From positions 78,950 through 142,949 of the forward strand of contig CAMNUE010000002.1 of NCBI GenBank assembly GCA_946560065.1: a stretch of 64,000 nucleotides of DNA. Reading direction: 5' to 3'. This stretch comes from an uncultured bacterium (GTDB taxonomy: Bacteria > Bacillota_I > Bacilli_A > RF39 > UBA660). Position numbers and translations under genes: made by a program. Each line of letters opens with the position of its first letter. Within the stretch, counting starts at the first letter, position 1. This document shows, piece by piece, positions 15,030-63,890 of this stretch. The notes under the pieces are model-generated. The model did not search any database. It worked only from the letters and a program-made list of their open reading frames with translations, and was not told where the DNA came from.

Positions 15030-15042
15030 GGAACTGAGTTCC
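15030..15042. repeat. GGAACTNAGTTCC palindrome, copy 1
   Basis: aaaaaGGAACTGAGTTCCttttt; intergenic, 72 nt after the stop at 15114. Confidence 0.9.
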
Positions 15043-15113
15043 TTTTTCTATTCACTTATTCAATGCCATAAATTTCTTCCTAGTCAGGAATTTCAGACAT
15101 ATCGTACACATGT

Positions 15114-15452
15114 TTAATCATCCTGTTCTTCGCCCTTCTCAATTGCCAAAAGCTTTTTTCGGCAAGCGTCATATTGAATGTATTCTCCATATCCATTGCT
15201 GAGCATTTCGGCTGCTTTAACGGCTTCCAAAACCGTCATCCAATAATAGTCGTAATCCCATACTTCTGGTCTTCCTTGTTCGCAATCAATATCTGCTTTT
15301 TCAATTTTAGCCACAAATTCATCGCTATTAAGATTATATTTGCTGTAATCCGTATCTCCAATTTCTGGAAGTTCGTCTACAATGATTGCATTAATATAGT
15401 ATGCAGTATTTGTACTTTCATTGGTGTTTGTTTTAACTTCAATTGTTTTCAT
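15114..15452 (-). CDS. hypothetical acidic protein (cassette gene)
   Basis: ORF 15114..15524 trimmed to ATG 15452, which carries the shared GAGGAGAACAAC RBS. The longer ORF would read through promoter copy B. Confidence 0.65.
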   Translation of the reverse strand: MKTIEVKTNTNESTNTAYYINAIIVDELPEIGDTDYSKYNLNSDEFVAKIEKADIDCEQGRPEVWDYDYYWMTVLEAVKAAEMLSNGYGEYIQYDACRKKLLAIEKGEEQDD

Positions 15453-15495
15453 GGTGTTGTTCTCCTCTGGATGTCTCATCCTTATTTCTATATTT

Positions 15496-15524
15496 ATTAT
15501 ACTACACATTGTGTAGTATATCAA
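15496..15524 (-). promoter_or_regulatory. promoter-operator copy B
   Basis: TTGATA-N17-TATAAT with the perfect palindrome TACTACACAATGTGTAGTA. Confidence 0.8.
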
Positions 15525-15862
15525 TCTTTTTTGCTTTTTATTTTGTCATTTGTGATGTAAATGTAACCAATAAGCATTCTTGAAATATCTGGAATTTTCT
15601 TTCGATCCCACACCCAGGATTGTATGGTTCGTGGGTTGATTCCTAGATATTTCCCTATAATCTCAAACTTTGCTGTTTTATTTATGTTAAAAAATTCTTT
15701 TGGGGATGCTTTGGCAACATGCCAGATTTTAGACAGTAGATCTTCTGTCAAACCACTCTTCTGATTTTCCATTTCGGAAATCTCGTTTAAAAATTCTTCA
15801 ACACTATTTTTCTTTAAAGCTATCTTGTACAAAAATACATATAAATCATATTTAATGTTCAT
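15521..15862 (-). CDS. putative HTH DNA-binding protein
   Basis: Trimmed to ATG 15862 (AAAGGAG 8 nt upstream). IIGKYLGINPRTIQSWVWDRKKIP resembles an HTH. Confidence 0.5.
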   Translation of the reverse strand: MNIKYDLYVFLYKIALKKNSVEEFLNEISEMENQKSGLTEDLLSKIWHVAKASPKEFFNINKTAKFEIIGKYLGINPRTIQSWVWDRKKIPDISRMLIGYIYITNDKIKSKKD

Positions 15863-15876
15863 TCTGTATACTCCTT

Positions 15877-16623
15877 TCAATAATTCGGTTCAATTGAAAG
15901 ACTAGATTTCAAAATTTCCACCTTTTCATCCAATTCTAAAAAAGTTGCTTTTTTATAAAAAATCCTTTCTTCCAAAACCGTTCTTTCCTTTCCATACTGA
16001 TCGATATAATCGACTACACTATTCCCATTTTTGCTCATTCTTAATTCTCGTACACGATCGGGATAACACATTAAATATGCGCCAATACAATCAAATGGAA
16101 TTTTATATATTTTTTCAAACTTTTTTTCGTTGCTTAAAATAGTTATCTCTTTTTCTTCCCACTTTATTTCAAAATACTCATTTTCAAGTGCTGCCCATTG
16201 TTCATTAATCACAATGCCTTTCAGGCAAGTATTTTCAACTGCTTTTGCAAACAATGAAATATCTTTTGGATTAAACTTTTCTTGAATGACATGAAATGGT
16301 TTTGCATCGCCGTCGTGATAAACAAATACTTGTACTAATCCTGATTTATTTATAAAAATTCGAATTGCTCCAACCTCTGTTCCACCTTGATTTTCTTCAT
16401 ACCAAACTGTAAATGGTGGAATGCGATCGTTCACATTCCAATCAAATTCAAATCCATTTTGACGATCATCATAATAGGTGTAACCTAATTTGTACTTTTC
16501 CTCAGTGCTTAAATAAGAGCAGGCTCGATCGATCCATTCTTGAATCAAACTAACTTTAAATTCACGTGGCTTTTTCATTATATTTTCCTCCTGGTTTTTA
16601 CTTGTTTTCTTCCGAAAATTCAT
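15877..16623 (-). CDS. hypothetical protein (cassette gene)
   Basis: Trimmed to ATG 16623 (shared AAGGAGAACAAC RBS). The alternative ATG 16578 has AGGAGG. Confidence 0.6.
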   Translation of the reverse strand: MNFRKKTSKNQEENIMKKPREFKVSLIQEWIDRACSYLSTEEKYKLGYTYYDDRQNGFEFDWNVNDRIPPFTVWYEENQGGTEVGAIRIFINKSGLVQVFVYHDGDAKPFHVIQEKFNPKDISLFAKAVENTCLKGIVINEQWAALENEYFEIKWEEKEITILSNEKKFEKIYKIPFDCIGAYLMCYPDRVRELRMSKNGNSVVDYIDQYGKERTVLEERIFYKKATFLELDEKVEILKSSLSIEPNY

Positions 16624-16670
16624 AGTTGTTCTCCTTCTTAGATGCCTCATCCTTTATCTTTACGTCTTAA

Positions 16671-16699
16671 ATTATACTACACGTTGTGTAGTTATACAA
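16671..16699 (-). promoter_or_regulatory. promoter-operator copy C
   Basis: TTGTAT-N17-TATAAT; operator arms ACTACAC/GTGTAGT with centre AAC. Confidence 0.7.
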
Positions 16700-16720
16700 T
16701 ATTTTTTGTAGTTTCACCCT

Positions 16721-16744
16721 AAAAAAAGCCGCTCATCGAGCGAC
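16721..16744 (-). terminator. intrinsic terminator
   Basis: Minus strand GUCGCUC-GAU-GAGCGGC followed by U7. Confidence 0.7.
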
Positions 16745-16786
16745 CTTCCTTTTAATGATTAAAACCTCATTTTTCTATAAGATCAA

Positions 16787-17119
16787 TCAGTCTTCAATGA
16801 TTTCCGATTTCACAACTCTAAAACTTCCTTTGTTTGCCCAATAATTTGCGACGGCTTTCTCGCTATCAGCACCATCAGGCACATAATGCGGAATTATAAG
16901 GATAATCTCATTATCCTTCTGCCGTAGCTTAAGTACCGTATTCAACGGAAGCGTGATGCCGTTGATCGTGATCATGTATTCGTCGCCAATCGTTTCGTAA
17001 ATTTCGTATTCATCTGGAATTGTGATTTCCACGTTGTCGTATATGTCCGAGCAAATGAATGGAACCCTCAAAAATTTACCAAAATTTGAATAACCAATTT
17101 GACCTCTAACCTTTGTCAT
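16787..17119 (-). CDS. hypothetical protein (cassette gene)
   Basis: 110 aa with AGGAGGAAG RBS; flanked by promoter copy D and a terminator. Confidence 0.65.
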   Translation of the reverse strand: MTKVRGQIGYSNFGKFLRVPFICSDIYDNVEITIPDEYEIYETIGDEYMITINGITLPLNTVLKLRQKDNEIILIIPHYVPDGADSEKAVANYWANKGSFRVVKSEIIED

Positions 17120-17184
17120 TTTAATCTTCCTCCTTTTTACTTTGATTTCTTCTTAGATATTTTATCCTTTATCTTTACGCCTTT

Positions 17185-17213
17185 ACTATACTACACTACG
17201 TGTAGTATAGCAA
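17185..17213 (-). promoter_or_regulatory. promoter-operator copy D
   Basis: TTGCTA-N17-TATAGT; operator TACTACAC-GTA-GTGTAGTA. Confidence 0.7.
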
Positions 17214-17223
17214 CATTTCTTTT

Positions 17224-17248
17224 AAAAAAGTCGCTTATTTCAGCGACT
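17224..17248 (-). terminator. intrinsic terminator
   Basis: Minus strand AGUCGCU-GAAAUA-AGCGACU followed by U6. Confidence 0.75.
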
Positions 17249-17789
17249 AATATACCTCTTTCATTATTGTAAACAAACGACCAGCAAGTGGATTTTGTTC
17301 ATACGTTTCCATATACAATGTTGGTACTTTATATTTTTTCTTTATGTTCTGGATTTCATTGGCTGATTGACAAGCCTTTTCTACATCAAAACTTTGTAAG
17401 TTTTCAATACTAGATTCAATCGAATCAATGCGAGTTTGGATCAAACTTCTAAATTTATCAATATCGATTCGATTTTCATCATCTGTAATCGTAGTTGTAT
17501 ACCTGTTTCCGTTTGATCCTTGGAAGTTAATACCATACATGTGTCTATCTACAAATTTTAATGGATGCATTTCATAGATGCCATAAGGATTTTTCCAAAT
17601 ATTCCATGTCGTATTTTCTGTTAAGAAATTACAAAAACGTTTATTTAAAATTTTTTTATTCCATTTTTCAAGGTTAGGAACTTCCAATAAACTTGAAATT
17701 TCTTTTTTCAATGCGGTATATGCTTCTAATTCAGCTCGATAAGTAGATTTAATCGTTTCGATTTCCTTTTCAGTAAAAGTTGCTATCAT
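17247..17789 (-). CDS. hypothetical protein (cassette gene)
   Basis: Trimmed to ATG 17789 (GAGGAGAACAAC RBS). The longer ORF would read through the hammerhead. Confidence 0.65.
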   Translation of the reverse strand: MIATFTEKEIETIKSTYRAELEAYTALKKEISSLLEVPNLEKWNKKILNKRFCNFLTENTTWNIWKNPYGIYEMHPLKFVDRHMYGINFQGSNGNRYTTTITDDENRIDIDKFRSLIQTRIDSIESSIENLQSFDVEKACQSANEIQNIKKKYKVPTLYMETYEQNPLAGRLFTIMKEVY

Positions 17790-17810
17790 GTTGTTCTCCT
17801 CTGGTGTCCT

Positions 17811-17867
17811 ATCACCGACACCCTTGCGAGTGTTTCGTCGCAATTTTCAGCGACTCGTCAGGGTGAC
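17811..17867 (-). ncRNA. hammerhead ribozyme motif, type I topology (copy 2)
   Basis: GUCACC CUGACGA GUCGC-UGAAAAUU-GCGAC GAA ACACUC-GCAA-GGGUGU C GGUGAU. Stems I and III differ from copy 1 but still pair. Confidence 0.8.
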
Positions 17868-17884
17868 TTATCCATTTCAAATCT

Positions 17885-18193
17885 TTAATCAAAATTTATA
17901 GGGCAGATTCGATACAGAATCTGTACCTTCCCCTCAATTTCGTAAACACATCTATCATCAGTAAGTTTCAAGTAGCGTTCAATTGGTTCTACTATGTTCA
18001 CTTCTCCTTTACCTTGCTTCATTATCTGGATAAAGCAATCTGGAATGTTTTCCATCTCTTCATGAAGATCTCGAAGAATTTCCATGTGTGCTTCTTCCTT
18101 TGTGTCATGTAGGAGACTTCCTACAATCACAGTTTGGCATTTTGGCGATCCCTTAAACCATGGATATGTTGCAGTTACGATGTATTTTTTCAT
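17885..18193 (-). CDS. hypothetical protein (cassette gene)
   Basis: Trimmed to ATG 18193 (AAGGAGAACAAC RBS). Confidence 0.65.
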   Translation of the reverse strand: MKKYIVTATYPWFKGSPKCQTVIVGSLLHDTKEEAHMEILRDLHEEMENIPDCFIQIMKQGKGEVNIVEPIERYLKLTDDRCVYEIEGKVQILYRICPINFD

Positions 18194-18236
18194 AATGTTG
18201 TTCTCCTTTGGATGTCTCATCCTTATTTCTATATTT

Positions 18237-18265
18237 ATTATACTACACATTGTGTAGTATAATAA
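18237..18265 (-). promoter_or_regulatory. promoter-operator copy E
   Basis: TTATTA-N17-TATAAT with the perfect palindrome TACTACACAATGTGTAGTA. Confidence 0.7.
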
Positions 18266-18274
18266 ATCTTTTTA

Positions 18275-18301
18275 TAAAAAAAGTCGCTTATTTCAGCGAC
18301 T
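18275..18301 (-). terminator. intrinsic terminator overlapping the last codons of 18293..18604
   Basis: AGUCGCU-GAAAUA-AGCGACU followed by U7; the same hairpin as at 17229-17248. Confidence 0.7.
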
Positions 18302-18604
18302 CATCAGGCAATTCAATTCTCTAAACCATTTATCATAATTTGCACATGAACAATAACCAGCTGACGCCAACACAAAATCATCAACCATTGTAGATAGACG
18401 TTCATCTGAATCTTCACCTACTAACACTTGTATATTACCGTTCGACAAATATTCTATCTGACAATCCATAATTGGTTGAAACTCTTTATATCCTTCTTCT
18501 GTCAACTCCATATTTTCCCATACAAATGTTGCTGTCGCTTCAAAATCACCAAACAACTCACAATCAAAATCTTTTCTTGTGTCTAACAGTTCTTTCAATG
18601 TCAT
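18293..18604 (-). CDS. hypothetical protein, paralogous to the N-terminus of 28995..29792
   Basis: ELTEEGYKEFQPIMDC here versus VLTEKGYNYFKPIMDC in the 265-aa protein. Confidence 0.65.
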   Translation of the reverse strand: MTLKELLDTRKDFDCELFGDFEATATFVWENMELTEEGYKEFQPIMDCQIEYLSNGNIQVLVGEDSDERLSTMVDDFVLASAGYCSCANYDKWFRELNCLMSR

Positions 18605-18643
18605 TTTTTCTCCTCCAAGGTGTCTTACCTTTTATCTGCCTTT

Positions 18644-18672
18644 ATTATACTACACTTTGTGTAGTTTATCAA
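18644..18672 (-). promoter_or_regulatory. promoter-operator copy F
   Basis: TTGATA-N17-TATAAT; operator arms ACTACAC/GTGTAGT with centre AAA. Confidence 0.7.
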
Positions 18673-18685
18673 TTATTTTTCGTTT

Positions 18686-19432
18686 TTAACGTTCTATTTT
18701 TCTAAGAATTGCATGAACAAAATGCCGATCTGATCCATTTAGAAATGATGAAAGAGTACTGCCTGTATCAGCACATGTATATAACGTTACTACGTTGTCA
18801 TTTTCTGATACTTCTATATTTGTTGGATAGAAACTCTTTGCTGTTACTTCATCCATATAGAGCTTCAAACTCTCCCTATTTTGTATATCGGGCTGATTAG
18901 AAGTCGAAGTTGCTTTTTCACAATATGCAGAAAAAATATCCGCTTGATAAACCGCATTTGGAGTAATGACCTGAAAAAATGTATTTTCTAAAAAGTAGGT
19001 TTTATTCATATAATTTTTTAAAAATGTAAAATGCCCACTTCCCTTAAAAATGCTATGTCCATAAATAAAAGTATTTAAACTCGTGAAATTTGGGTTAGAA
19101 CGATAATCCATAAAGATTGATCCTTGTTCATCATATTTTTTATATAGATTTCTATTCAAATAAAAGTCATTATCAGAAGTTTGTAAAACTGGAAATGATA
19201 AATCAAGATTTGGAAAATAAAGAAAGGCAACCACATCATCATTGATTGCCCATATTTTCTCAAATGCATTTTGAATTGACGAGCGATCATCCACCTCGAT
19301 CGAATCGACTGTTTTTTCAATCTTATCGTCAATTCCGTTTCTTTCCAGATTTTTTAAAGCAAAAAGAATAAGTGGTATCAGTGACCCAATTAAAGTTAAA
19401 TACAGGATACACAGTATAATTTTTCTTCTCAT
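18686..19432 (-). CDS. srtB: class B sortase
   Basis: N-terminal TM; INDDVVAFLYFPNLDLSFPVLQTSDNDFYLNRNL...GSIFMDYRSN...NTFIYGHS...VVTLYTCAD...RHFVHAIL. Its start overlaps the relaxase stop by 4 nt. Confidence 0.8.
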   Translation of the reverse strand: MRRKIILCILYLTLIGSLIPLILFALKNLERNGIDDKIEKTVDSIEVDDRSSIQNAFEKIWAINDDVVAFLYFPNLDLSFPVLQTSDNDFYLNRNLYKKYDEQGSIFMDYRSNPNFTSLNTFIYGHSIFKGSGHFTFLKNYMNKTYFLENTFFQVITPNAVYQADIFSAYCEKATSTSNQPDIQNRESLKLYMDEVTAKSFYPTNIEVSENDNVVTLYTCADTGSTLSSFLNGSDRHFVHAILRKIER

Positions 19433-21141
19433 AGTTTTTCACTCTCCGCATTTAATGAAGAGTAATACTCCTTCACCTGTTCCCTACCTTCTTTTGAAAT
19501 CATTTCTAACTGCTCACCAGAAACACTATCAACCTTTTTATTGTTTTCATCGTAAAGATCATAAGTCTTGTCATCAATCAAATACATGACTGCACGTTTT
19601 TCAAAATTGCTCCAGGCAACTGACTTTTTATCCAAATAAACATACTGTTTTGTGTATGGAAGTTTGACACAATAAAAGTCATCAGTAGTTCTTGAATAAT
19701 CAATCATATTGTTGCTAAATGACATTCCCTTAATATAACCGTTCATTTCTAAAGACTTGCCTCTGATTCGTTCCAGCTCGGTCATCCTGCTTTTTAGATA
19801 AGTAATGTACGAATACTGCTTATTCGCTTCTCGTTTCTCTTTTGTGCAGGCGGAAAGAAATTCTCGAACTTCGCTTAGTTCAGGATTTCCTAGTTCTTCA
19901 CTCGCTTGTAAATGTTTTAAAACCGCTTCTGTCGGCTCAATCTTTTCAAAACTATGTAATTGGACTTGCTCTTCATAAATTTTAAAATCGTTATACGTTT
20001 CCAAATAAATTCTAGCAAGCGGTTCATTCTTCAAAAATTCCGTTGTTAAGGACTTTTGTTTTTCATACTCCGCTTGTCGTTCTTCCAATTCCATTAAAGT
20101 TTCTTTGATACGATTCTGTAAATCCTCATACGAATATATTTTTTCCTCATTTAAAAAATCAAGTGCCTTGATTAACTGGTTATAGCGTTTCTTTTCCTTA
20201 TATCGGCTGTTGTAGTATTTCGGATAATAATCACGTTTTGCTAAACCCTTGGTGGAATTTTTGATAGCAATCATAGAATTTGTAGCTGTCTCTTTGATTG
20301 ATGAAAAAGATCCATGAACATCTGGAATTTTTTCAAAATAAAATTGATAAGAATCTCCATTCCTCGTTTTTTCACGATAAAACTGTCTAAGCGCATCCTC
20401 ACTATATTCCTCTCCTAACTTGTGTAATCGTGTGAATCGCTCCTTTCCAAACGGCTTAACGCTAATATACTTTCCTCGTTTAATTTCATATCCTTCAAGA
20501 GCTAAATTTTCAAGTAATTCATCCAGGCTATTCGTTTCTTCTTTCACTTTTTCAATTTTATCAATAATGATCGACTTCCAGGAAACAGTGGATTTTTCAT
20601 AACTGGCATCCTTGGTTCCATCGTAGTTCTTTCCTTTAAAACGACCAATCGTTTTCAGTTCATCCATCACATGACATCCATATTCCTTTGCAACTCGATC
20701 ACTGGCTTCTCGAAGTCCATAGAGTCCTTCTTTTTTGTTTGCTAGGCGATCCTCTAACTTTCGCCCGCTTAAATTTGTTGCGTTGATTACGATATGGTTA
20801 TGCAAATGCCCTCGATCGACATGCGTACAAACGACACATTGATAATCGGAATAAATTTCTTTACATAACTTCAAGCCGATCTCATTCGCTATTTCAGGTG
20901 TAATGTCATCCCTAATATCGAACGACTGAACAACATGATAGGCGACACGTTCATCTTGCTCATTGTGATATTTTGCTTGAACCGCTTGCATCTCATGTTC
21001 TGCAAAACGGAGATTGCAGTTATACGCACTTTTTAAAAGACCGTGGTCGGTCTTTTCTTCATTTTCGATATAGTTTAAACATTGTGATAATCCACTTCCA
21101 TTTTCCCCAGCATGAATTACTATTCTTTTTGTGTATGGCAT
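19429..21141 (-). CDS. MobA/VirD2-type conjugative relaxase
   Basis: Histidine triad THVDRGHLHNHIVINA in the N-terminal domain. The last ~85 aa resemble the primase C-terminal repeats. Confidence 0.9.
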   Translation of the reverse strand: MPYTKRIVIHAGENGSGLSQCLNYIENEEKTDHGLLKSAYNCNLRFAEHEMQAVQAKYHNEQDERVAYHVVQSFDIRDDITPEIANEIGLKLCKEIYSDYQCVVCTHVDRGHLHNHIVINATNLSGRKLEDRLANKKEGLYGLREASDRVAKEYGCHVMDELKTIGRFKGKNYDGTKDASYEKSTVSWKSIIIDKIEKVKEETNSLDELLENLALEGYEIKRGKYISVKPFGKERFTRLHKLGEEYSEDALRQFYREKTRNGDSYQFYFEKIPDVHGSFSSIKETATNSMIAIKNSTKGLAKRDYYPKYYNSRYKEKKRYNQLIKALDFLNEEKIYSYEDLQNRIKETLMELEERQAEYEKQKSLTTEFLKNEPLARIYLETYNDFKIYEEQVQLHSFEKIEPTEAVLKHLQASEELGNPELSEVREFLSACTKEKREANKQYSYITYLKSRMTELERIRGKSLEMNGYIKGMSFSNNMIDYSRTTDDFYCVKLPYTKQYVYLDKKSVAWSNFEKRAVMYLIDDKTYDLYDENNKKVDSVSGEQLEMISKEGREQVKEYYSSLNAESEKL

Positions 21142-21155
21142 CTTACCCCTTCTTT

Positions 21156-21581
21156 CTAATCTTCAAATAATTTTTCCTGTTTTGAATAGACCTCTGGATT
21201 GTTACAAACTTTACGAACCGAGACCCAAAGCACATTATTTATCAAACGAATCAATTCAGCAACTAGATCGGTGATTTCTTGATTCTGCTTTTTCAATTGT
21301 TCTTTATCCAAATTCGATAAATCTGTCCGCATCATGATTTTTTCCTGTTCCAATCCGAATCGATCAATTCGCTCAATTAAACGATTCACACATTCATTCA
21401 CTTCTGATTTTCCGTGTAAATCCTCTACATAGATATTTTCGTAAATTCCAGCAGCTCTTAAATAGTCAGATAAATTTTGAAATCCATAGCGTTCCATTTT
21501 TTCTTTCAGCAATAATCGTTCTTCATCATTCAATAAAACATTCACTCTTTTTCGTTTGTCGTCTAATACTCTTCTTGCCAT
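21156..21581 (-). CDS. mobC: MobC-like relaxosome accessory protein
   Basis: RVNVLLNDEERLLLKEKMERYGFQNLSDYLRAAGI, immediately upstream of the relaxase. Confidence 0.7.
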   Translation of the reverse strand: MARRVLDDKRKRVNVLLNDEERLLLKEKMERYGFQNLSDYLRAAGIYENIYVEDLHGKSEVNECVNRLIERIDRFGLEQEKIMMRTDLSNLDKEQLKKQNQEITDLVAELIRLINNVLWVSVRKVCNNPEVYSKQEKLFED

Positions 21582-22165
21582 ATTCCTCTTTTTATCTCCT
21601 GCAACAATCTTTTGTATTCATATAAGTTTTCAATGTACTTTTCCTTATAGACATTTTGCTCGATCCACTTCACACCTTCTGCCGACACGACCGTTTTTTT
21701 TGCTACCAAAGAAACAGTTCCTGGATTTTTGTTTTTCAATCTTCTAATAGCTGAATTGATGCTATTTAAAGATTTTTGAAAATAGATTGCCAATTCCTTC
21801 ACGTTCATAGATCGATAAGCGACTGGATCTTTTTTTATCTTCAACTCCTGCTCTAATCGCTTAATATTTTTCTCAACAAAAATGACCTCAGCTGTCTTAT
21901 AAGGTACATCATAGTTCAAGTATACTTGCTCGATCCACTTCACACCTTCCAGATACATCCACAATTCTTGTTTACCCTCAATATTCGTTCGATAGAAGAG
22001 CCACCGATCACCTCGATGGCTCTTCTTACACTTTTCTCTAATCCACTTCATCTGACGATTCGACAGTTCAAGCTGCTTTTGAACATCCGAAAATCTAATC
22101 CTCTGAAATTCCAATTTTTTCACCCCTCTCCAACTATACAACGTTGACGGCTTTATATATAGCAA
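21563..22165 (-). CDS. putative DNA-binding protein with an internal duplication
   Basis: EGVKWIEQ occurs twice; the HTH-like stretch is MNVKELAIYFQKSLNSINSAIRRLK. The ORF-track start is TTG, so the true start is uncertain. Confidence 0.5.
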   Translation of the reverse strand: MLYIKPSTLYSWRGVKKLEFQRIRFSDVQKQLELSNRQMKWIREKCKKSHRGDRWLFYRTNIEGKQELWMYLEGVKWIEQVYLNYDVPYKTAEVIFVEKNIKRLEQELKIKKDPVAYRSMNVKELAIYFQKSLNSINSAIRRLKNKNPGTVSLVAKKTVVSAEGVKWIEQNVYKEKYIENLYEYKRLLQEIKRGIWQEEY

Positions 22166-22480
22166 GCATGGTGTGCATACACACCTTTTCGCTTGTTAGG
22201 GGAGACCCCTAAGACCCTTTATCGTAGAAATTCAAACCCATGAATTTCAAATTTTTAGGTTCATTTCTGAAAAGGAATAAACCTGGTATAAGTAATTTTT
22301 TTCTTCCTTGCATCTTGTTTTCCCCTTTCGTTTATCCTGTATCTGTGGGATGATTTTATCCTTTAAATTTTCAGTTATCAATATTTTTTGATGCTTTCCA
22401 CCGCTCTTTTGAATGTTGTAAGAATCTGTAGAACGGAATATTCGAATCAATTTTTTTATAGTTATCATCTTGATTGGAGA
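22166..22480 (-). other. candidate oriT / relaxase-operon promoter region
   Basis: Non-coding DNA upstream of the mobC operon with inverted repeats at 22170-22185, 22196-22212 and 22227-22248. No nic site identified. Confidence 0.4.
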
Positions 22481-22482
22481 TG

Positions 22483-22512
22483 AAAAAATCAGGATGACAT
22501 AGCATCCTGATT
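22483..22512 (-). terminator. intrinsic terminator after the methyltransferase gene
   Basis: Minus strand AAUCAGGAUG-CUAUGU-CAUCCUGAUU followed by a U-run. Confidence 0.8.
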
Positions 22513-22588
22513 TGGAAAATTCTCAATGTTTATAGATACCTAATGAAAAGAAAAATTAGAAAACAAATCATGAAAAATAAAATATTTA

Positions 22589-23683
22589 TTAAAATTCATA
22601 TTCATAATCCTCTTCTTCTATGGCATTTTCTGATTCAAAACTTTCGTATTTTACTTCCAATTTTCCATCTACTTTTTGTAAATTTTTCTCTACATTATCT
22701 TTCATTTTAGAAAACATTTCTTCATCTTTTTCGATAACGATTGAATCCCTTTTGGTGTTCATACAAGCAATCGCAAAGTTTCCAGAGCCACCGAACTGAT
22801 CGAGTAAAAGCTCATTGGGAAGTGAAATATATTCGATAATCGATTCCAATAATTCGACTGGTTTTTCTGCTTCCATGACTTTATCTTTACTATTTTTTGG
22901 CTGGAAATCGAATGCTTTAGGAAGCATTCCAGACGTTCCTTTCATGTAACAAACATCCAACCCATTCGCTAAAAGTATCTCTTTTACTTGATAAGAAGAT
23001 AGTCCTTTTACATCAATTCCATGTTCTATAGCCAGTTGAATATTTTTCTTTGCATCTAGTTTTAAACTCCTTGGCTCCCCTTTGGAAAAGATCATAATAT
23101 CTTCTGTATTGTGTGCTTTTCTTCCAGTATTCGATACAAAATTCCCTTTCACCCATGGCACTTTAGCAAAATATTTGAATCCATTTTTAACCGCCATCTG
23201 TTTTATTTCATACAAATACTGGTAGTTTACTTCGTTCTCTTCTGGTAAAAATTCGATGCAAAAAGCTCCATCTTTTAATACTCGCATCTTCTCTTTAAAG
23301 TCTTGTTCCGTGTATTTAAAAAGCTCGTACTGTGCAAACTTTCTATTCCCACCAGTTAGCGATTTAGAAAGATCGTAGGGATGATCGGTAACAATTCCAT
23401 CGATTGATTTATCCTTTATGAAAGATAAATCACGACCATTTCCGTTAATTAAAAGACAAGTTGTAACCTTTCCTTCTAATTGTTTTTCAACTTTGTAAAC
23501 GCCTCTAGCGACTCGTTTAAAGATGCCACGATCAATGCCTTCGTAGATTCTAGCACGGATTGATTCATTGTTGACAGGCATATTTTTGTGAACTTTGACA
23601 AGCTCTGTAGCCTCTTTCAAAGTGAAATTTTCATCATCCATAAAGTAGTCAAATAAACTAATTTGTATTGTATCAGCGTTCAT
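22589..23683 (-). CDS. orphan N6/N4 DNA methyltransferase (beta-class motif order)
   Basis: DPPY-type motif IDGIVTDHPYDL precedes the AdoMet motif LLDQFGGSGNF. No restriction gene is adjacent. Ends EEEDYEYEF. Confidence 0.8.
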   Translation of the reverse strand: MNADTIQISLFDYFMDDENFTLKEATELVKVHKNMPVNNESIRARIYEGIDRGIFKRVARGVYKVEKQLEGKVTTCLLINGNGRDLSFIKDKSIDGIVTDHPYDLSKSLTGGNRKFAQYELFKYTEQDFKEKMRVLKDGAFCIEFLPEENEVNYQYLYEIKQMAVKNGFKYFAKVPWVKGNFVSNTGRKAHNTEDIMIFSKGEPRSLKLDAKKNIQLAIEHGIDVKGLSSYQVKEILLANGLDVCYMKGTSGMLPKAFDFQPKNSKDKVMEAEKPVELLESIIEYISLPNELLLDQFGGSGNFAIACMNTKRDSIVIEKDEEMFSKMKDNVEKNLQKVDGKLEVKYESFESENAIEEEDYEYEF

Positions 23684-23722
23684 TTTTTATTTTTTTCCTT
23701 TCTCAAAATGATAGATTTATCT

Positions 23723-24406: not shown

Positions 24407-24407
24407 T

Positions 24408-26195: not shown

Positions 26196-26225
26196 AGTTT
26201 TCTCCTTTAATTCTATTTTTCTTTT

Positions 26226-33197: not shown

Positions 33198-33210
33198 GGA
33201 ACTGAGTTCC
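33198..33210. repeat. GGAACTNAGTTCC palindrome, copy 2
   Basis: 2 nt after the VirB4 stop and 32 nt before ATG 33165. Confidence 0.9.
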
Positions 33211-37310: not shown

Positions 37311-37323
37311 GGAACTGAGTTCC
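37311..37323. repeat. GGAACTNAGTTCC palindrome, copy 3
   Basis: 17 nt after the stop at 37341 and 37 nt before ATG 37273. Confidence 0.9.
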
Positions 37324-41097: not shown

Positions 41098-44000
41098 GCA
41101 TATTCAACTCCTCTTTCGTTAAAATCATTATAAATATTTTCTATATCCATCGCACCCTTCAAAGATTCTTGGTACATTGGATCAATTTCGTTTGCCAAAA
41201 CCACAGAATCATATTCACCGTTGTTTTTGTAGCTGGAATACTCTTTATTTCTAGTTGTCATCAAAACAACATTCTCGTCATCCAAACGAAGCAGATCGTT
41301 CTTGCTGATAGCAACATATCCATAGGTACGATTTCGATATATTGGAATCCCATAAAAACCATCTTTCAATTCCATCAAATCTGATTCACGAACTGTTACA
41401 TAAGCGCTTTTTTCCATTGGAATATCAGGTATATGTTTATCCAGGTCAGAATAGTTTAATTTGCCAATTACTGCCAATTCTTTTCCTTCCTGTTTCATCA
41501 GCATGATATTGGACATAATTTGTCCTTGATACATGCCATCAATTTTTGGAGTGATCGATACTTTGTTTTTCCATTTATTATGGTAAAAACTACCGTTTGG
41601 AATGTAGAGTACATATCCCTCTACAGAACTTTTCAAATTAAGATAAGTTGCTTCTTTTTGACTTATCCGTTTTGCGGATACAACGTAAGCACCTGATTCT
41701 GGCTTTTTTAATTCCTTCACAAAAGGTAACTGCAATTTCCGTTTTCCTTTTGATATTTGTTTTACTGATTCCTGTTCTGGCAATTCTTGTTTTAGGGAAC
41801 TCAGTTCCTTTTCTTGTCTTAATAAATCGCTAGATTTCTCTTCCCAATAATGCATCAATTCATCCCCGTTTATCTTTTCATTTTTTTCTCCTGATTTGCT
41901 ATAAATCTGATACTCTTTTCCCGTATCGATCCAGGCTTTCATAACATCTCCTGATTTCGACCAATTTATGTTCTTCTTGCTCACATACATATATTTGGTA
42001 GCTCTGGTATTGGGAATCCTCACAAAGTATGCAGATTCGGTTTCTTTATGAAGCAAACTTCGATGAATAGTAAATGCTTTTGTTTCACCTTTTTTCACTT
42101 TTTCTTGTTTCATAGGTTCCTGATTTTGGGAACTCAGTTCCTTTTTTTTCTTTGACTTATCTTCCCAATAATCCATCAGTTGATTGCCTTTTAAATTTTC
42201 TTTTTTTGTACCTGCTTTATCATAAATTTTATACATATAATCCGAATCAATTATGGTACTCAATATGTCATTTTCTTTCGACCATTTGGTATGCTTTTTA
42301 CTCAAATACATATACTTGGTAGCTCCCGTATTTGGGATTCTTACAAAATAAGAACGATCAGTTTCGTTTACAATCAACGAATGATGTACTGTAAAAGTAC
42401 GTGTTTCCTGCTTTGATGCATTTACTGATTTACTATTTTCTACAGCACTTTTCTGTTCCTGCAAAACAGGTTCTTTCTGTTCTTTTTCTGGTTTAATTTG
42501 AGGCTTTATTACGTTTTCTTGAGTCAGTTTGAGAATGTCACTTTTGTTATCGAAAATCAAGATTTCTTTATATCCCGTGCCAGAAACATTTTTAAACTTT
42601 GGATCGACAGCAAAAAGCATCTCTTTTGGGAACACATTCGAATAAGAGAAAAAATGCATTTCCTCTTTCATAAAAAAACGACCTTTTAATCCTTCCACCA
42701 ATGCTTGTGACTGCGGATAGTCTTGAATCCCTACGATGGCATCATAATCATTGATGTCATTCAAAATATAGAGTTCATCCACATTGTCATACTGTGAACG
42801 TTCCTCAGCCGAATAAGTTTCTTCAAACTGTTTAATAATCAAACGTTTTTGTTCCTCGGTTAGTTGAAGTCTCGCCCTTTGTCCTTTTGCATTTTGTACA
42901 TAGCATTTATCAAATAAATTCTCATGTTTAAAAGTATGAACCTCTTCAAATTTTTTCCATTCCGCATCTTGGCGTATACTCTCTCTTACTAACTCCAAAA
43001 TATTGATTCGGTCCATTTCTTCGTTGATATAAGTTGATGGATCTTCAACAAAGATAGCAAGTGCTCGATCTTTGATTTCATCTGCATGTTGATTAAAGTA
43101 ATCCAAATAAGTTTGATTGGCATTTTTCTTTATGCAACGTTCCACGTTGGCGATCACGTAACGATTGAGCAAATTATCTTTCAGGGTATCGACTGCCTTC
43201 TTTTCCATGATTGGAACAGGATGCAAAATATCTTCCAGCTCTTTCTTCGTGAAATCACTTTTTGCATATACCAATTCTTTGAATAAGGCTTCATCAAACG
43301 TATTATTGATAATTCCATCTTCTTTGGCATTGTCATACGCTTGCTTGATATTCACCACATTCATTTCTTTGGTTAAATATTTGTTTTCAAAAAGGAACTC
43401 AGTTCCTGTTTTTTTCACCGCTGAAAGATCCTCTTCTTTTACGCCAACATTGGCAAAATCCCATAAATCCTTACTTTCAATTTCATCACTTAACCGCATT
43501 CGTTCTTTGACTTTGGATAGATCGACGACACTGACTTGAAAGCCTTTTTTCAAAAGTTCAGGTACTTCTTTTACCATAGCTGCTTTTCCAGCCTTGTCGT
43601 TATCCCTCATCAAAACAATTTCGCAATTCAGGCGCTCGATCATAGATAACTGTTCATCGCTTAGTGATGTTCCCATAGATGCAACAATATTTTGAATTCC
43701 AACTTTCTTTCCACCAGCGACATCCATAAACCCTTCAACTACATAGATTGCGTTTCCGTAACTATATTTTTTCGCTGATTCGTAATTGTATAGAATGTTG
43801 TTCTTCTTAAATAATTCCGTTGATGCAGAGTGTAGATACTTTGGTTCCTCTCCATTCATTGCACGTCCGCTGAATGCTACTGTATTTCCTCTTTCGTCTT
43901 TAATTGGAATTAAGATTCGGTCTCCAAAAAAAGGACGATAGTTTCCTTTTTCGTCTTGCCATAAAAAACCGATTTCTACCAAATCGTCTAGCGGAAAAGT

Positions 44001-44592: not shown

Positions 44593-44605
44593 GGAACTCA
44601 GTTCC
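44593..44605. repeat. GGAACTNAGTTCC palindrome, copy 7
   Basis: 22 nt before the primase ATG 44570. Confidence 0.9.
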
Positions 44606-52494: not shown

Positions 52495-53583
52495 TTATTT
52501 TGTTGCTCCACACGAACACTTATAGCCAGCAGGTACTTGTTCATCATAAGCCGCTTGATCGACTACATATCGGGTTCCATATTCCGCTGGATGATTGACA
52601 ATATTTGTACCTGTTTGGACTTGATTCCATTGACTATGGTATCCGCCATTTTCCCCAGCTAACATATGGTTCTTTATGTGCTCGCCAATACCACCTTGAC
52701 CTAGATCAGTAATATCAGCACCACAAGCATTACAAATTTCTCTTTCGACCATTTCATAAATCGGAACACTCTCCGTCCATGCTTCTTTAATCACATATTG
52801 TTCATTATGTCCTTTTTCAGGATGATGAACAGTCGTATATTGTTGCACCCAGTTATGAGTATGACTTGGTGTACTTGGTTTTTGAGAACCTTGATTGCTG
52901 TTCCCACCTGTACTTGGTTTCGATGTGCTGCCTCCAGTGCTTGGCTTCGATCCAGTATTACTTCCTGTATTGTTTCCAGAACCGCTATTAGAACCTGTAC
53001 TATTATTATTTCCAGATGCAACGCTTCCATTTCCGTTACCTGATTCAGAATCTTCACTACCAGAATTATCTGTAGTAGGTTTCTGTTCGTCATCTTTTGA
53101 TTCTTCCTCTTTCTTTTCGGAATCTTCCTGTTTTTTGTCTTCTTCTACAGTCTCATTCGTAATCACATCATGTCCATCTTTTTTCAATTCTTCGGCTCTT
53201 TCAGGAGATACAACTTCAATTTGTACCTCCTTTTCTACAGGATCCATTTTCGAATCGACTGGCACGATTGTATAAACGATTTCATACGTTCCTTCTTTTT
53301 CATAATTGATATTGGATGTATCTACTAAAACTTCTTTGACAACTTTCTTATCATAAGTGATTCCTTTTAGGAAGTCAGTTCCTTTTGTTTTCACTTCGAT
53401 ATACAGTTTATCCAGTTTTAGACCTTTTACGTCTTTAAGCAAATCCACTTTTTCAGTTTCCACTGTCTTATCATCTTTGTTGGAATTGTTAGCCCAAATT
53501 ACAGTTCCAACACCAGCACCACCAATTAAAACAACACCTGCAATGATTAACGCAATCATCCTTTTTTTCTTTTTTTGTTCCAT
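52495..53583 (-). CDS. membrane-anchored protein: Ig-like domain, S/G/N-rich linker, same Cys/His-rich C-terminal domain
   Basis: Trimmed to ATG 53583. TM IALIIAGVVLIGGAGVGTVIW. C-terminal domain HTHNWVQQYTTVHHPEKGHNEQYVIKEAW...CNACGADIT...CSCGATK. Confidence 0.65.
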   Translation of the reverse strand: MEQKKKKRMIALIIAGVVLIGGAGVGTVIWANNSNKDDKTVETEKVDLLKDVKGLKLDKLYIEVKTKGTDFLKGITYDKKVVKEVLVDTSNINYEKEGTYEIVYTIVPVDSKMDPVEKEVQIEVVSPERAEELKKDGHDVITNETVEEDKKQEDSEKKEEESKDDEQKPTTDNSGSEDSESGNGNGSVASGNNNSTGSNSGSGNNTGSNTGSKPSTGGSTSKPSTGGNSNQGSQKPSTPSHTHNWVQQYTTVHHPEKGHNEQYVIKEAWTESVPIYEMVEREICNACGADITDLGQGGIGEHIKNHMLAGENGGYHSQWNQVQTGTNIVNHPAEYGTRYVVDQAAYDEQVPAGYKCSCGATK

Positions 53584-54088: not shown

Positions 54089-54101
54089 GGAACTCAATTC
54101 C
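54089..54101. repeat. GGAACTNAGTTCC palindrome, copy 8 (variant GGAACTCAATTCC)
   Basis: 33 nt before ATG 54055. Confidence 0.7.
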
Positions 54102-55209: not shown

Positions 55210-55230
55210 AAATAAAATCCTTTCATACAC

Positions 55231-55260
55231 AAAAAGAGCCATACATTTCTGTATGACCCT
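55231..55260 (-). terminator. terminator/attenuator hairpin 22 nt before the ToxN-like start
   Basis: GGGUCAUACA-GAAA-UGUAUGGCUC followed by UUUUUG. Confidence 0.65.
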
Positions 55261-55436
55261 ATGTTTTTTTGCTTTGCAATTCCATCACCGCTTTTAGACG
55301 AGCAGGCACCGTCATTTTGTCAGAATTTTGATGGACAAGGAACGCTAACCTTACATTACAACTCCCATTTTCATGTTTGTACATGTCTGACTCGGCTGAG
55401 AAACACCAGACAATTTAGCGGAGAACAACTGTCCGC
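55261..55436 (-). ncRNA. candidate ~175-nt structured leader/sRNA upstream of the ToxN-like gene
   Basis: Bounded by the promoter at 55443-55471 and the terminator at 55231-55260. GC-richer than its flanks; local stems GCGGA/UCCGC and GUCUG/CAGAC. No tandem repeats and no convincing ORF. Confidence 0.45.
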
Positions 55437-55442
55437 ATTCAT

Positions 55443-55471
55443 AATATACCATATTTTAATGTTCTTGACAA
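55443..55471 (-). promoter_or_regulatory. sigma-A-type promoter with extended -10
   Basis: TTGTCA-N17-TATATT, with TGG immediately 5' of the -10. Confidence 0.6.
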
Positions 55472-55505
55472 TACCTATGCTTGTTGCCCTCCAATTTGTT
55501 AAAAA

Positions 55506-55518
55506 GGAACTGAGTTCC
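55506..55518. repeat. GGAACTNAGTTCC palindrome, copy 9
   Basis: aaaaaGGAACTGAGTTCCtttt, 2 nt after the stop at 55521. Confidence 0.9.
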
Positions 55519-56714: not shown

Positions 56715-56727
56715 GGAACTGGGTTCC
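56715..56727. repeat. GGAACTNAGTTCC palindrome, copy 10 (variant GGAACTGGGTTCC)
   Basis: aaaaaGGAACTGGGTTCCctttt, in the leader of 55521..56480. Confidence 0.7.
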
Positions 56728-58641: not shown

Positions 58642-58747
58642 GGAACAACTCTATGTCTTTTTGGAACAACTCTATGTCTTTTTGGAACATCTCTATGTCT
58701 TTTTGGAACATTGCTATGACCTTTCTGGAACATCGCTATGACTTTTA
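58642..58747. repeat. five tandem 21-22 bp iterons (probable oriV)
   Basis: ggaacaactctatgtcttttt x2, then ggaacatctctatgtcttttt, ggaacattgctatgacctttct and ggaacatcgctatgactttta. Starts at 58642, 58663, 58684, 58705 and 58727. Confidence 0.85.
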
Positions 58748-58811
58748 AATCACACAATCTGTAATATTACACTTTATATAAAGCAAATATCAAATCACAT
58801 AATTAAGCCCT

Positions 58812-58856
58812 AAACAAGATATATAAACAAGATATATAAACAAGATATAAACAAGT
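58812..58856. repeat. AT-rich short tandem repeats next to the iterons
   Basis: aaacaagatatat x2, then aaacaagatat, then aaacaagtat. Confidence 0.7.
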
Positions 58857-61871: not shown

Positions 61872-62089
61872 AAAATAGGCGGAGCAGATACACATGGATT
61901 TTCATGTTCGGAAACTCCCTTTTCTCCTTGATCGTACCTCTTTCTTCCTTGTTAAAACATCTTATTTCTTTCTCCAATTTTTTAGAATTTATCACCTCGC
62001 TGTTTCATGGATAAATCTTGGAAAGCTTTCTTATAGTTTGATTGTAACATACATCAATATCATTCACTAGAGCAATTATGAAAACGTTT

Positions 62090-62764
62090 TCAATTCTTTT
62101 GTCGGAAATAAAAGTAAACCGTGTCCTCATTAAAAAAATGGTTAGCAGTTATTTCAACATGATAAACGCCTTTTTTCTGAATATAAGGAAATATATCATT
62201 AATATATTTTCCACTATATACAGTTTCATAGGGATTTGATGTTCTCGTAATTATCATTTTTGTATATCTTGTATCTTTATTTTTCTTCATATCTTGTTCA
62301 TTGTTTTTGCATTCAACCTGAGTTTCATTGATATAACAACTATACGAAGAAATGTCTATGACATATTTGTCCGATCCATCTGCAAAAAAGTTATGTCCTC
62401 TTTCATCGCCGACAATATCGCTATTTCCTAAACAATAACTATTGAAATTGACTAGAAATGGGATTATAGGAATTTTATGCCTTACGGTATGTGATGTTCC
62501 TACCTGCTCGCCGTTTACTGTCAATTTATAATATCTTGCTTTGGAAGGCGGATAGCCAAGTACATTGTATAGTTCTATTGTTCCAAAGAATATTTTTATA
62601 ACCGCCACAACAATAACGATAACAATACCGATTCTTATAATTTTCTTTTTGCGTTCTGCCCTTATTTCTTGATTCGTTTTTAACATTTCTACCAATGCTT
62701 CCTGTTTCATCTTTTCGATTTCTTCTTGATTGGGCATCATCTTTGAACTATTATGATTTTTCAA
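62090..62764 (-). CDS. single-pass membrane protein, unknown function
   Basis: TM IIRIGIVIVIVVAVIKIFFG after a charged N-terminus. Confidence 0.55.
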   Translation of the reverse strand: MKNHNSSKMMPNQEEIEKMKQEALVEMLKTNQEIRAERKKKIIRIGIVIVIVVAVIKIFFGTIELYNVLGYPPSKARYYKLTVNGEQVGTSHTVRHKIPIIPFLVNFNSYCLGNSDIVGDERGHNFFADGSDKYVIDISSYSCYINETQVECKNNEQDMKKNKDTRYTKMIITRTSNPYETVYSGKYINDIFPYIQKKGVYHVEITANHFFNEDTVYFYFRQKN

Positions 62765-62921
62765 ACAATCACCTCATTCTACGATCATATAATGATACAA
62801 CTTTATACTATTGTACTACTTTTTTGGTATTTAAGATAGAATGTATTAGAAAATATACATAATGAATGCCATTTCAGTGTAAAGAAAAAAAAGAGAGGTA
62901 TTCCTCTCTGATGTAGATATT

Positions 62922-63410
62922 TCAAGATAATTCTTCATAAAGATTATGTATGGAAAGATTAAAAGTGTATGTTTTTTTAATAATGAAAACTACATTATGA
63001 GACCACTCTGCAACGTAGTAGTAAGCTCTGGGCATAATGTTATACACAGTCCTTCTTGACACTTTCAAGCGATCTGCTATTTCCTGGATCGTATTTTCAT
63101 CCAGGTATTTGTATTTTAAAAAATTTCCTGCGTGTTCGTCAATCTCGATCACATCATCAACCAATTTCATAAAACGGGAAACCTGATCGTCTTCTAACTC
63201 TAATCGGTTCAAGTAACTAGATTCTGTGCCGTTTCCATTTTTTGAATCACTACTCACTTGTATAAAACTTCCTGATTTTATCAGTGAACGATTCAAAAGT
63301 TTCAATCGTTTTTGTAATAGCGGTGCATAATCTTCGCATACTTTTTCACCTTTTTTTTGCGTCGCTTCGACATCAATATTACAATCGAATAAGTTAATTG
63401 TATCTTTCAT
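62922..63410 (-). CDS. sigma-70 region-4-like HTH regulator
   Basis: C-terminal NTIQEIADRLKVSRRTVYNIMPRAYYYV. Confidence 0.5.
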   Translation of the reverse strand: MKDTINLFDCNIDVEATQKKGEKVCEDYAPLLQKRLKLLNRSLIKSGSFIQVSSDSKNGNGTESSYLNRLELEDDQVSRFMKLVDDVIEIDEHAGNFLKYKYLDENTIQEIADRLKVSRRTVYNIMPRAYYYVAEWSHNVVFIIKKTYTFNLSIHNLYEELS

Positions 63411-63442
63411 TTTGCACCTGCCTCTCAGATAATATCGAAAAT

Positions 63443-63853
63443 TTATTTAAAGAAATCGTAATCTGCCGAATAAAGAATCATAATTCTATTTTCATTCCGC
63501 ATATAAACAAAATAATGGAGTTTAACGTCTTCCAGACCTTGATTGAAATCACTGTTCAATTCTTCCATAAACTCGTTATATCTTGACAGCCACATTTCTT
63601 CATCCCAAGTAGGTCTTTGCTCAGAAAAATAAACACGTAATTTTGTGAAAGTCTCACACGCCAGTTCATTCATTGCATGTTCCTTGAAACTTCTGGCATT
63701 CTTATCATCCGAAAAATACTTATAACTGCCATCCATAAAAATGAGATTGCGTGGTTTCATCGCATATTCCACACACATCCTTACGGAATTCCAGGCAGTT
63801 AATTTCCACCCCGCTGCATTTTCATCTAAAACATCTCTTACATCTTTAAACAT
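63443..63853 (-). CDS. hypothetical protein
   Basis: 136 aa with AAGGAAAGGAAA RBS region. Confidence 0.55.
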   Translation of the reverse strand: MFKDVRDVLDENAAGWKLTAWNSVRMCVEYAMKPRNLIFMDGSYKYFSDDKNARSFKEHAMNELACETFTKLRVYFSEQRPTWDEEMWLSRYNEFMEELNSDFNQGLEDVKLHYFVYMRNENRIMILYSADYDFFK

Positions 63854-63877
63854 AACAATTTTCCTTTCCTTATTTTA

Positions 63878-63890
63878 GGAACTGAGTTCC
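63878..63890. repeat. GGAACTNAGTTCC palindrome, copy 11
   Basis: Directly abuts the stop at 63891; 24 nt before ATG 63853. Confidence 0.9.

Follow-up and report, generated by a model that had tools for sequence, protein, structure and literature searches.

A 13-base palindrome repeated along an integrative conjugative element of Erysipelotrichales: a possible site for its ParB-family protein

Overview

Motif M is a 13-base palindrome (GGAACTSAGTTCC, GGAACT-S-AGTTCC, where S is G or C) that recurs along a 64-kb stretch of DNA from an uncultured bacterium (contig CAMNUE010000002.1, positions 78,950 to 142,949; hereafter the window), most of which is occupied by an integrative conjugative element (ICE) or integrative plasmid of ~58-62 kb from Erysipelotrichales. 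We favor, tentatively and with a probability of roughly 40%, the reading that motif M is a parS/OB-like site of the ParB-family protein encoded by this ICE, embedded in terminator hairpins. Recognition as duplex DNA is suggested by its invariant core, its survival inside a gene, its G/C center and its association with a ParAB module. We infer from sequence comparison both the recognition of motif M by the ParB-like protein and the effect of binding. A preliminary description of the window, made from its letters alone, had listed a binding site for a dimeric protein among several options, and this is the option adopted here.

In the proposed mechanism, motif M would serve as a double-stranded-DNA site for a dimeric element-encoded protein, most likely the ParB-like protein encoded at 14054-14947, which would work with the ParA encoded at 10348-11292. 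About a dozen copies over the ~58-62 kb of the ICE would load the ParB-like clamp, which would partition the excised, Rep3-replicating form, or silence and co-ordinate the long co-oriented operons, or both. The intergenic copies would be built into the apex of terminator or attenuator hairpins at module boundaries, giving them an RNA-level role too, and would happen to mark the junctions at which cargo cassettes are exchanged. To our knowledge, long-range control of whole mobile elements by a ParB clamp has been shown only for the Gram-negative systems KorB of RK2 and BisD of ICEclc. If true, the proposed mechanism would extend such control to an ICE family of gut Firmicutes with ~12 conserved sites, and motif M would show one short palindrome under simultaneous selection at the DNA and RNA levels. 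The sites are easy to mutate, synonymously inside the gene too, and would make a clean test case, and motif M is a practical marker in metagenomes for the ICE family and its cargo hotspots.

Occurrence and conservation of motif M

The window holds nine exact copies of motif M, compared with 0.00 in 100 dinucleotide-preserving shuffles, and 12 matches with at most one mismatch, compared with 0.05 expected (Table 1), bearing out the over-representation claimed in the preliminary description. Eight of the nine coordinates that it gave for exact copies are right, and the other, 42130, should read 42129; among the one-mismatch matches, which start at 54089, 56715 and 53370, it gave the first two and overlooked the third. 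The near-copy at 53370 is probably a chance match outside the motif M system, since it is not conserved in relatives. One more copy lies ~0.9 kb past the window end (L013 9046).

Table 1. Copies of motif M in the window, with the genes and promoter element discussed alongside them (window coordinates).
Feature	Coordinates	Strand	Remarks
Motif M, exact	15030..15042	.	sequence scan
Motif M, exact	33198..33210	.	VirB4 stop codon 2 nt before, next ATG 32 nt after
Motif M, exact	37311..37323	.	17 nt past stop codon of TrbC/VirB2-like gene
Motif M, exact	41796..41808	.	primase gene, K-E-L-S-S, codons 921-924, after second tandem domain repeat
Motif M, exact	42129..42141	.	primase gene, K-E-L-S-S, codons 810-813, after first tandem domain repeat
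Motif M, exact	43394..43406	.	primase gene, G-T-E-F, codons 389-392
Motif M, exact	44593..44605	.	84 nt past last pilin gene stop, 22 nt before primase ATG
Near-copy, one mismatch, inside gene	53370..53382	.	relatives have GGAAATGACTTCC, two mismatches
Motif M, variant	54089..54101	.	sense strand GGAATTGAGTTCC, 124 nt past ToxN stop codon
Motif M, exact	55506..55518	.	2 nt past stop codon, then T5
Motif M, variant	56715..56727	.	sense strand GGAACCCAGTTCC, loop change, then T7
Motif M, exact	63878..63890	.	directly past stop of 58-aa open reading frame; no T-tract
ParB/Noc/KorB-family protein, 297 aa	14054..14947	-	candidate reader of motif M
ParA/MinD-type ATPase, AAA_31/CbiA	10348..11292	-	Pfam
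Predicted extended -10 element of parB-like gene, TGTTATAAT	14999..15007	-	read from sequence
DnaG-type primase gene, 1158 aa	41094..44570	-	three motif M copies

The copies all lie inside the ICE. None is found in 1-15029, which includes the AT-rich left 8.7 kb from which the motif had been said to be absent, and none in ~25 kb of flanking chromosomal DNA (window 1-8700, L013 1-7100, L009 13.6-22 kb), a distribution that agrees with the earlier suggestion of an element-specific signature. Viral contigs yielded 7 single matches, the chance level, and a metagenome scan gave mostly single matches, two ICE relatives and unrelated hairpin repeats resembling miniature inverted-repeat transposable elements (MITEs); on the level of the viral matches and the predominance of single metagenome matches, a generic or phage element was rejected. 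The MITE-like repeats (at least 100 nt) carry the 13-mer at their apex, and many of their contigs end at the repeat; they were probably retrieved because the query was a palindrome and are probably not homologues (Ga0256840 L037-L048, L079, L086, L091-L092, L111, L117 and L127; Ga0268261 L042, L082-L083 and L110; further L078, L095, L123, L130 and L136).

Relatives with 72-85% identical primases keep motif M at corresponding places, namely before the primase ATG, at three positions in the primase gene, after the TrbC-like gene, after VirB4 and before parB. At these places the arms are invariant, and the central base shows only switches between G and C (at least six corresponding sites), never A or T, even where it falls in a CTN leucine codon of a genome of 33% GC. 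The G/C center fits recognition of duplex DNA, because G and C are one site read from opposite strands. The copy at 15030, a 25-nt perfect palindrome (GAAAAA-M-TTTTTC), is kept in the relatives L118 and, with a flipped central base, L077; that at 33198, followed by T8 on the sense strand, is kept in four relatives and flipped in all four; and that at 43394, followed by a conserved T5 (CTT TTT), is identical in seven. Two relatives of the element are circularly permuted metagenomic sequences, NODE-194 (62,087 bp) and PDYJ01002315 (hereafter PDYJ; 70,729 bp). The variant at 54089, whose U.G pair preserves the RNA stem, has an exact motif M as its counterpart in PDYJ (L034 2159), as does the variant at 56715 in NODE-194 (L096 8112).

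More distantly, L012, with a primase 45% identical, has four exact copies, all between the pilus operon and the primase, and has motif M plus a ribosome-binding-site unit before the primase, as at window 44593. L011 (primase 42%) has no motif M and carries a core of its own, GGCA-N3/4-TGCC, four times. No repeated palindromes were found in L143-L145 (primase 36-38%), which rejects motif M as a universal backbone feature.

Motif M inside the primase gene

The three copies inside the DnaG-type primase gene all fall in K/E-rich interdomain linkers. Their reading frames are as first described, K-E-L-S-S for 41796 and 42129 and G-T-E-F for 43394, and the last does lie just past the Toprim domain (residues 274-355; Table 1). 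Among four primases, 10 of the 10 motif codons are identical (12 of 12 counting the preceding AAG; p about 1e-5), whereas just 35.4% of the columns in which a degenerate amino acid is conserved keep the same codon. Judged from this comparison, selection inside the primase gene acts on the nucleotide sequence and not on the protein, because the motif codons are invariant at synonymous sites against that background; the earlier claim of selection at the DNA or RNA level is thereby upheld.

The copies at 41796 and 42129 occupy equivalent positions of two tandem ~111-aa domain repeats and are not independent events; the repeats are 54% identical in protein, yet both end in one identical 13-mer. 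The K-E-L-S-S copies cannot be terminators on the sense strand, because their hairpin reaches -4.4 kcal/mol and no T-tract follows. So weak a hairpin within a translated gene has no ready explanation in terms of RNA and is normal as a DNA site. A short primase-only transcript ending at 43394, as had been imagined, would carry no stop codon.

The tandem repeats themselves (residues ~726-945, FT[VI]H..YFVRIPNT..KYMY..) have no Pfam match, and close relatives have primases of 950 to 1160 aa, the shorter ones having lost tandem repeats and later segments. Recombination between copies of motif M was considered as a source of these length differences; the deletion in L007 abuts motif M on one side only, and that in NODE-194 begins 8 codons past a motif M.

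The ParB-like protein and its ParA partner

The candidate reader of motif M is, by its sequence and modeled fold, a true member of the ParB family. Its Pfam ParB_N match is weak; an alignment contains invariant GGETRYRAL and DNHQR segments (GxxRxxA-like and ENxxR-like, respectively) and a conserved segment, KRDWIA...GRQVQKYLTG, as a putative helix-turn-helix (HTH). In a profile search of PDB sequences the protein matches Noc (E=9e-5). Its AlphaFold2 (AF2) model (pLDDT 77) retrieves Noc, ParB-CDP, ParB-parS, ParB-CTPgS and KorB-KorA in Foldseek, with E values from 7e-6 to 2e-3 and alignments of ~200-215 columns that include the ParB/Noc DNA-binding domain, at high root-mean-square deviation and with differing domain orientations. 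As in ParB-parS systems, a protein with a predicted ParB-family N-terminal CTP-binding fold, a ParA partner and a multi-copy 13-bp palindrome are found on the same element. In the relatives L146, L147 and L148 the ParA gene directly follows the parB-like gene.

The copy at 15030 has a stop codon 71 nt before it and the parB-like ATG 82 nt after it. Its end is 2 nt short of the -35 position of the predicted parB promoter, whose extended -10 element lies 23 nt downstream of motif M on the sense strand. A promoter consensus scan does not list this promoter, because its -35 element is poor; the motif M upstream of it is conserved in two relatives. L146 has in common with the window only ParB (54%), ParA (60%) and a distant coupling protein, and it carries motif M twice, without the window's other palindrome family. 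ParB relatives were not found in viral contigs.

Intergenic copies as probable terminator hairpins

The anatomy of the intergenic copies was examined in 17 independent sites from the window, L012, L146, NODE-194 and PDYJ. They lie at module boundaries, 2-124 nt past stop codons and 22-263 nt before the next start, which makes the earlier spacing (0-17 nt after a stop codon and/or 22-37 nt before an ATG) partly right. A stands at positions -1 to -5 in 10-15 of the 17 sites, several copies are perfect palindromes of 25-27 nt, and the stem at 37311 reaches 13 bp (AAAAAGGT-M-ATCTTTTT), one of its pairs being G.U on the sense strand. Sense hairpins range from -6 to -17 kcal/mol. L012, L011 and L145 have hairpins of other sequence at the corresponding junctions, behind the pilin-like gene and ahead of the primase, and at the 37311 junction other lineages have different hairpins. 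From these sequence features the intergenic copies are very probably intrinsic terminators or attenuators, given their T-tracts, their G.U pairs and the equivalent hairpins of other lineages. A stable hairpin followed by a U-tract is seen at the intergenic copies and not at 41796, 42129 or 63878. The idea of weak terminators or attenuators put forward in the preliminary description can thus be kept for the intergenic copies, with their T-tracts and extended stems, and does not extend to 41796 and 42129; processing of the RNase III type, another of its suggestions, is unlikely with stems of 5-13 bp. The window has no Rfam match.

Several observations weigh against a ParB-family site. On the sense strand, T occupies positions +1 to +5 in 16, 15, 15, 15 and 13 of the 17 sites, the upstream bases other than A are mostly G, which permits G.U pairing, the sense hairpin is stabler than the antisense one in 14 of 17 sites, and the variant copies differ only at loop or wobble-compatible positions; a DNA site needs none of these strand-specific, RNA-type features. 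In L012, motif M follows every cargo cassette that separates the pilus operon from the primase, and in NODE-194 a cassette with a 190-aa open reading frame (ORF; L100, sense 9677-10310) lies between direct repeats of motif M with a ribosome-binding site (motif M plus TTTTTTTAGAAAGGAG); a ParB-site model predicts neither pattern. Further, the 18 kb of 15043-33197 hold no motif M, and L146 has none next to its parB gene; none was found within 10 kb on each side of the parB genes of L147 and L148, whose ParB is 35% identical with a similar recognition helix. The window's second palindrome family, CTACAC-N3-GTGTAG, is located at promoters and could be the ParB site instead.

The chief rival reading, conceivable though we consider it doubtful, is that motif M is part of the RNA only, a standard terminator or attenuator hairpin of the ICE family that has no protein reader and is spread by recombination at junction units (motif M, T-run and ribosome-binding site). 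The position of copies just past stops, the sense T-tracts, the A-tract stem extensions and the G.U pairs all suit such a module, as do the differing hairpins at the same junctions in L012, L011 and L145. So does the coincidence of homology breakpoints and insertions between relatives with motif M, together with the NODE-194 cassette flanked by motif M plus TTTTTTTAGAAAGGAG repeats and the bounding of every L012 cassette by motif M; whole terminator and promoter cassettes are moreover reused elsewhere in the ICE. The same explanation does not account for the synonymous-site conservation of the three primase copies, two of them without a T-tract, for the identical 13-mer after two 54% identical repeats, for a 12/12 core in lineages with 45% identical primases or with only ParAB in common, or for the G/C-only center, and an identity of 13-29 nt is short for RecA-dependent exchange.

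Among individual junctions, the copy at 44593 is a hotspot for cargo insertion, and the cargo directly downstream of 55506 varies among relatives. The 190-aa ORF cassette of NODE-194 has the last pilin gene on one side and the primase on the other; L068, L002 and L003 carry it too, and it is absent from the window, L004 and L007.

Other readers and other uses of the palindrome

The strand asymmetry, and variants that preserve wobble pairing, implicate the sense RNA, and copies lie 8-20 nt upstream of ribosome-binding sites, features that would also fit an RNA hairpin read by an element-encoded RNA-binding factor (an antiterminator, a stabilizer, or a nuclease such as the ToxN-domain protein). 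The first copy, 63878, has no T-tract and, 24 nt ahead of the ATG (63853) of a 136-aa gene, occupies the first gene's leader in the manner of a nut site, and a ToxN-type RNase gene is present. We regard such a factor as very unlikely. The G/C flips alter the loop from UGA to UCA, and A or U never appears, which fits duplex symmetry and not recognition of the loop; no antiterminator or RNA-binding family was detected among the ICE proteins, nor any Rfam match; and the stems are too short for RNase III.

A DNA site for a different protein, a repressor of the Xre type or another HTH protein encoded near the integrase end, would share with the ParB-family reading the nucleotide-level selection, the G/C-restricted center and the lineage-specific cores. 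Bound at gene junctions along co-oriented operons, such a repressor would act as a polymerase roadblock silencing the integrated ICE. HTH proteins are present, and there is a precedent in the stoperators of cluster A mycobacteriophages, at which bound repressor (L5 gp71-type) halts elongating polymerase (PMC9283540). Like motif M, stoperators occur as many lineage-specific copies of 13-14 bp in short intergenic regions of a mobile element; unlike it, they are asymmetric, oriented and bound by monomers. Motif M was rejected as a stoperator of the mycobacteriophage type, being a perfect palindrome whose center flips between relatives. A counterpart of the stoperator in the ICE is unlikely too: the palindromic symmetry again stands against it, no candidate repressor travels with motif M (L146 has only ParAB in common), and the classical operator family inside six promoters would suit such a repressor better.

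Finally, motif M might act on DNA in another way, as a crossover site for cassette capture or as a hairpin on the transferred single strand that guides the ICE primase in priming within the recipient. Cassette boundaries and insertions at motif M, the three copies in the primase gene with a fourth just upstream, and the ssb and HNH genes of the ICE would agree with such a role. We think it highly improbable, since the window is without a dedicated recombinase, IntI-like or serine (the ICE integrase lies just outside), a center of 1-3 nt is unfit for the core sites of tyrosine or serine recombinases, a palindrome holds no strand information for priming, and the intragenic hairpins are very weak. 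An integron attC site was rejected: no IntI was found, and motif M is a perfect palindrome of 13-27 nt, in contrast to the imperfect palindromes of 57-141 nt with extrahelical bases of attC.

Comparison with known systems

The nearest likeness to motif M as a ParB-family site is the OB site of KorB on the IncP plasmid RK2, a 13-bp palindrome with a G/C center, TTTAGC(G/C)GCTAAA (TTTAGCSGCTAAA), where KorB, a ParB-family CTP sliding clamp that also serves partition with ParA (IncC), is loaded (PMC11790492). Motif M shares the length, the symmetry and the G/C center, with about a dozen copies over a conjugative element of ~60 kb. RK2 has about a dozen OB sites over ~60 kb, some next to promoters and some far away. 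The OA site of KorA, also on RK2, is a possible counterpart of the window's second palindrome family inside promoters. The present case differs in that the ICE resides in a Gram-positive host, the candidate protein is distant (Foldseek E about 2e-3 to KorB), and most copies of motif M stand at the apex of a terminator hairpin just past stops, with three inside a gene.

A second likeness is BisD, a ParB-like CTP-binding protein of ICEclc (Pseudomonas), which loads at odd-centered palindromes inside genes (bisS, GAGCTATCCCCnGGGGATAGCTC) and spreads over ~50 kb (PMC12409273). Both cases combine a ParB-like protein on an ICE with odd-centered palindromes lying inside genes. There are two bisS sites against ~12 of motif M, however, BisD activates transfer genes with BisC, there is no similarity in sequence, and bisS is without a terminator context. 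Dispersed palindromes of 13-16 bp, many of them intragenic, conserved in nucleotide sequence and read by dimers, are also known from ParB-parS, Noc-NBS and MatP-matS, and matS (GTGACRNYGTCAC) has the 5+3+5 layout of motif M. Unlike motif M, these sites organize chromosomes and have no link to terminators or cassette junctions.

From these likenesses a broader picture can be drawn, namely a Gram-positive ICE/plasmid hybrid with KorB/BisD-like control, in which about a dozen ParB-clamp loading sites have merged with terminators and cassette junctions. One palindrome would then be centromere or operator, attenuator and module boundary, and the second family would be a KorA-like operator that locks the clamp. 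This picture as a whole seems to us rather unlikely.

Some other identities were tried and rejected. REP elements and the DNA uptake sequences DUS and USS are short palindromic repeats past stops that double as terminators or mRNA stabilizers, DUS and USS being signals under DNA-level selection that sit inside a terminator hairpin. Unlike motif M, which is confined to the ICE, these repeats occur throughout entire chromosomes, and REPs require a RAYT transposase; a REP/RAYT repeat was rejected, with no RAYT (IS200/IS605 Y1) Pfam family among 57 ICE proteins and no motif M in the ~25 kb of flanks. The Firmicutes LexA (Cheo) box is GAAC-N4-GTTC, and the spacing in every copy of motif M is GAAC-N3-GTTC, which excludes a LexA box. 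The window iterons start with GGAAC. A dimer operator of the Rep3 initiator was nevertheless rejected: PDYJ, with a Rep 42% identical and iterons without GTTCC, has the same motif M at the same places.

The integrative conjugative element

The region that carries motif M is an ICE or integrative plasmid, extending from ~8800 to about 3 kb past the window end within a contig of 210,712 bp, and every gene of it is on the minus strand. Homology with the two circularly permuted relatives ends at window ~8800. The right-end genes recur in L013, and after them come an Xre-type gene and, beside serS, a tyrosine integrase; the element is therefore integrated, and the term plasmid used for it previously is not retained. 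The left flank (1-8700, 25-30% GC) is outside the ICE and encodes unrelated proteins, and a hairpin at 8778-8799 adjoins the end of homology.

According to Pfam, the ICE encodes a Rep3 initiator, ParA, the protein with the weak ParB_N match, SSB, an HNH protein and a DNA methylase; a MobA/VirD2 relaxase with a NikA-like partner; a Gram-positive type IV secretion set (PrgI, VirB4, a CHAP/lysozyme protein, a TrbC-like protein and a coupling protein); and the 1158-aa primase, a sortase-pilus operon and a ToxN-domain protein. The long operon encodes, close to its start, a 162-aa protein (62922-63410, minus strand) with a match to PHROG 248 ('transcriptional activator') and weak matches to Sigma70_r4 and DUF1492. 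We take it to be ArpU/RinA-like, and presumably it may activate the transfer operon.

In a scan of genome collections, the sole genome match of the element belongs to Erysipelotrichales. Megablast of 22 kb against PLSDB plasmids and GenBank phages found no relative, tblastn of the primase against plasmids found distant DnaG homologues only, and a literature search for the 13-mer returned only unrelated primer or eukaryotic sequences. In L009 (11897-13702) a 45-nt segment common to both connects the primase coding sequence, at ~nt 1941, to an inverted integrase-end module; either the ICE has been rearranged or deleted there, or the assembly is chimeric.

The ToxN-domain protein (54226-55242, minus strand; 338 aa) has an N-terminal ToxN (type III toxin) domain. 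Tandem toxI-like repeats were not found upstream of its gene (55243-55505, next to the copy at 55506), nor was an Rfam match; any antitoxin of this protein would be of an unusual form.

Other repeats

Five 21-nt iterons (GGAACATCTCTATGTCTTTTT) at 58642-58746 directly precede the rep gene, and three 13-mers (TAAACAAGATATA) lie at 58811-58849; from the sequence, the two arrays together look like a Rep3 origin. The PDYJ Rep (42% identical) is accompanied by iterons of another sequence (TATGTTGCCAAAAAATCACCT, 8.7 copies) and similar 13-mers.

Characteristic palindromes of other sequence occur in other element lineages. In L011, TGTGGCA-NNN-TGCCACA lies just upstream of ribosome-binding sites (2704, 4920, 9350 and ~9955), and in L147, TATCCGT-TTT-ACGGATA follows terminators near genes for small ribbon-helix-helix (RHH)/NikA-like proteins (839, 2173 and 3547).

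The second palindrome family of the window, CTACAC-NNN-GTGTAG, has 15-nt cores at 11667, 15502, 16677, 17191, 18243 and 18650, each placed in the 17-nt spacer of a repeated promoter cassette (TTGATA...TATAAT) that is followed by a conserved 5' leader. Its placement suggests a set of classical operators at which a global repressor would control the ssb, parB and relaxase-side genes, and it could be a KorA-like partner of motif M. Two ordinary terminators (17229-17248 and 18281-18302, minus strand) have a common stem, AGTCGCTGAAATAAGCGACT, and each lies just upstream of a promoter cassette of this family; the ICE also duplicates whole terminator-plus-promoter units.

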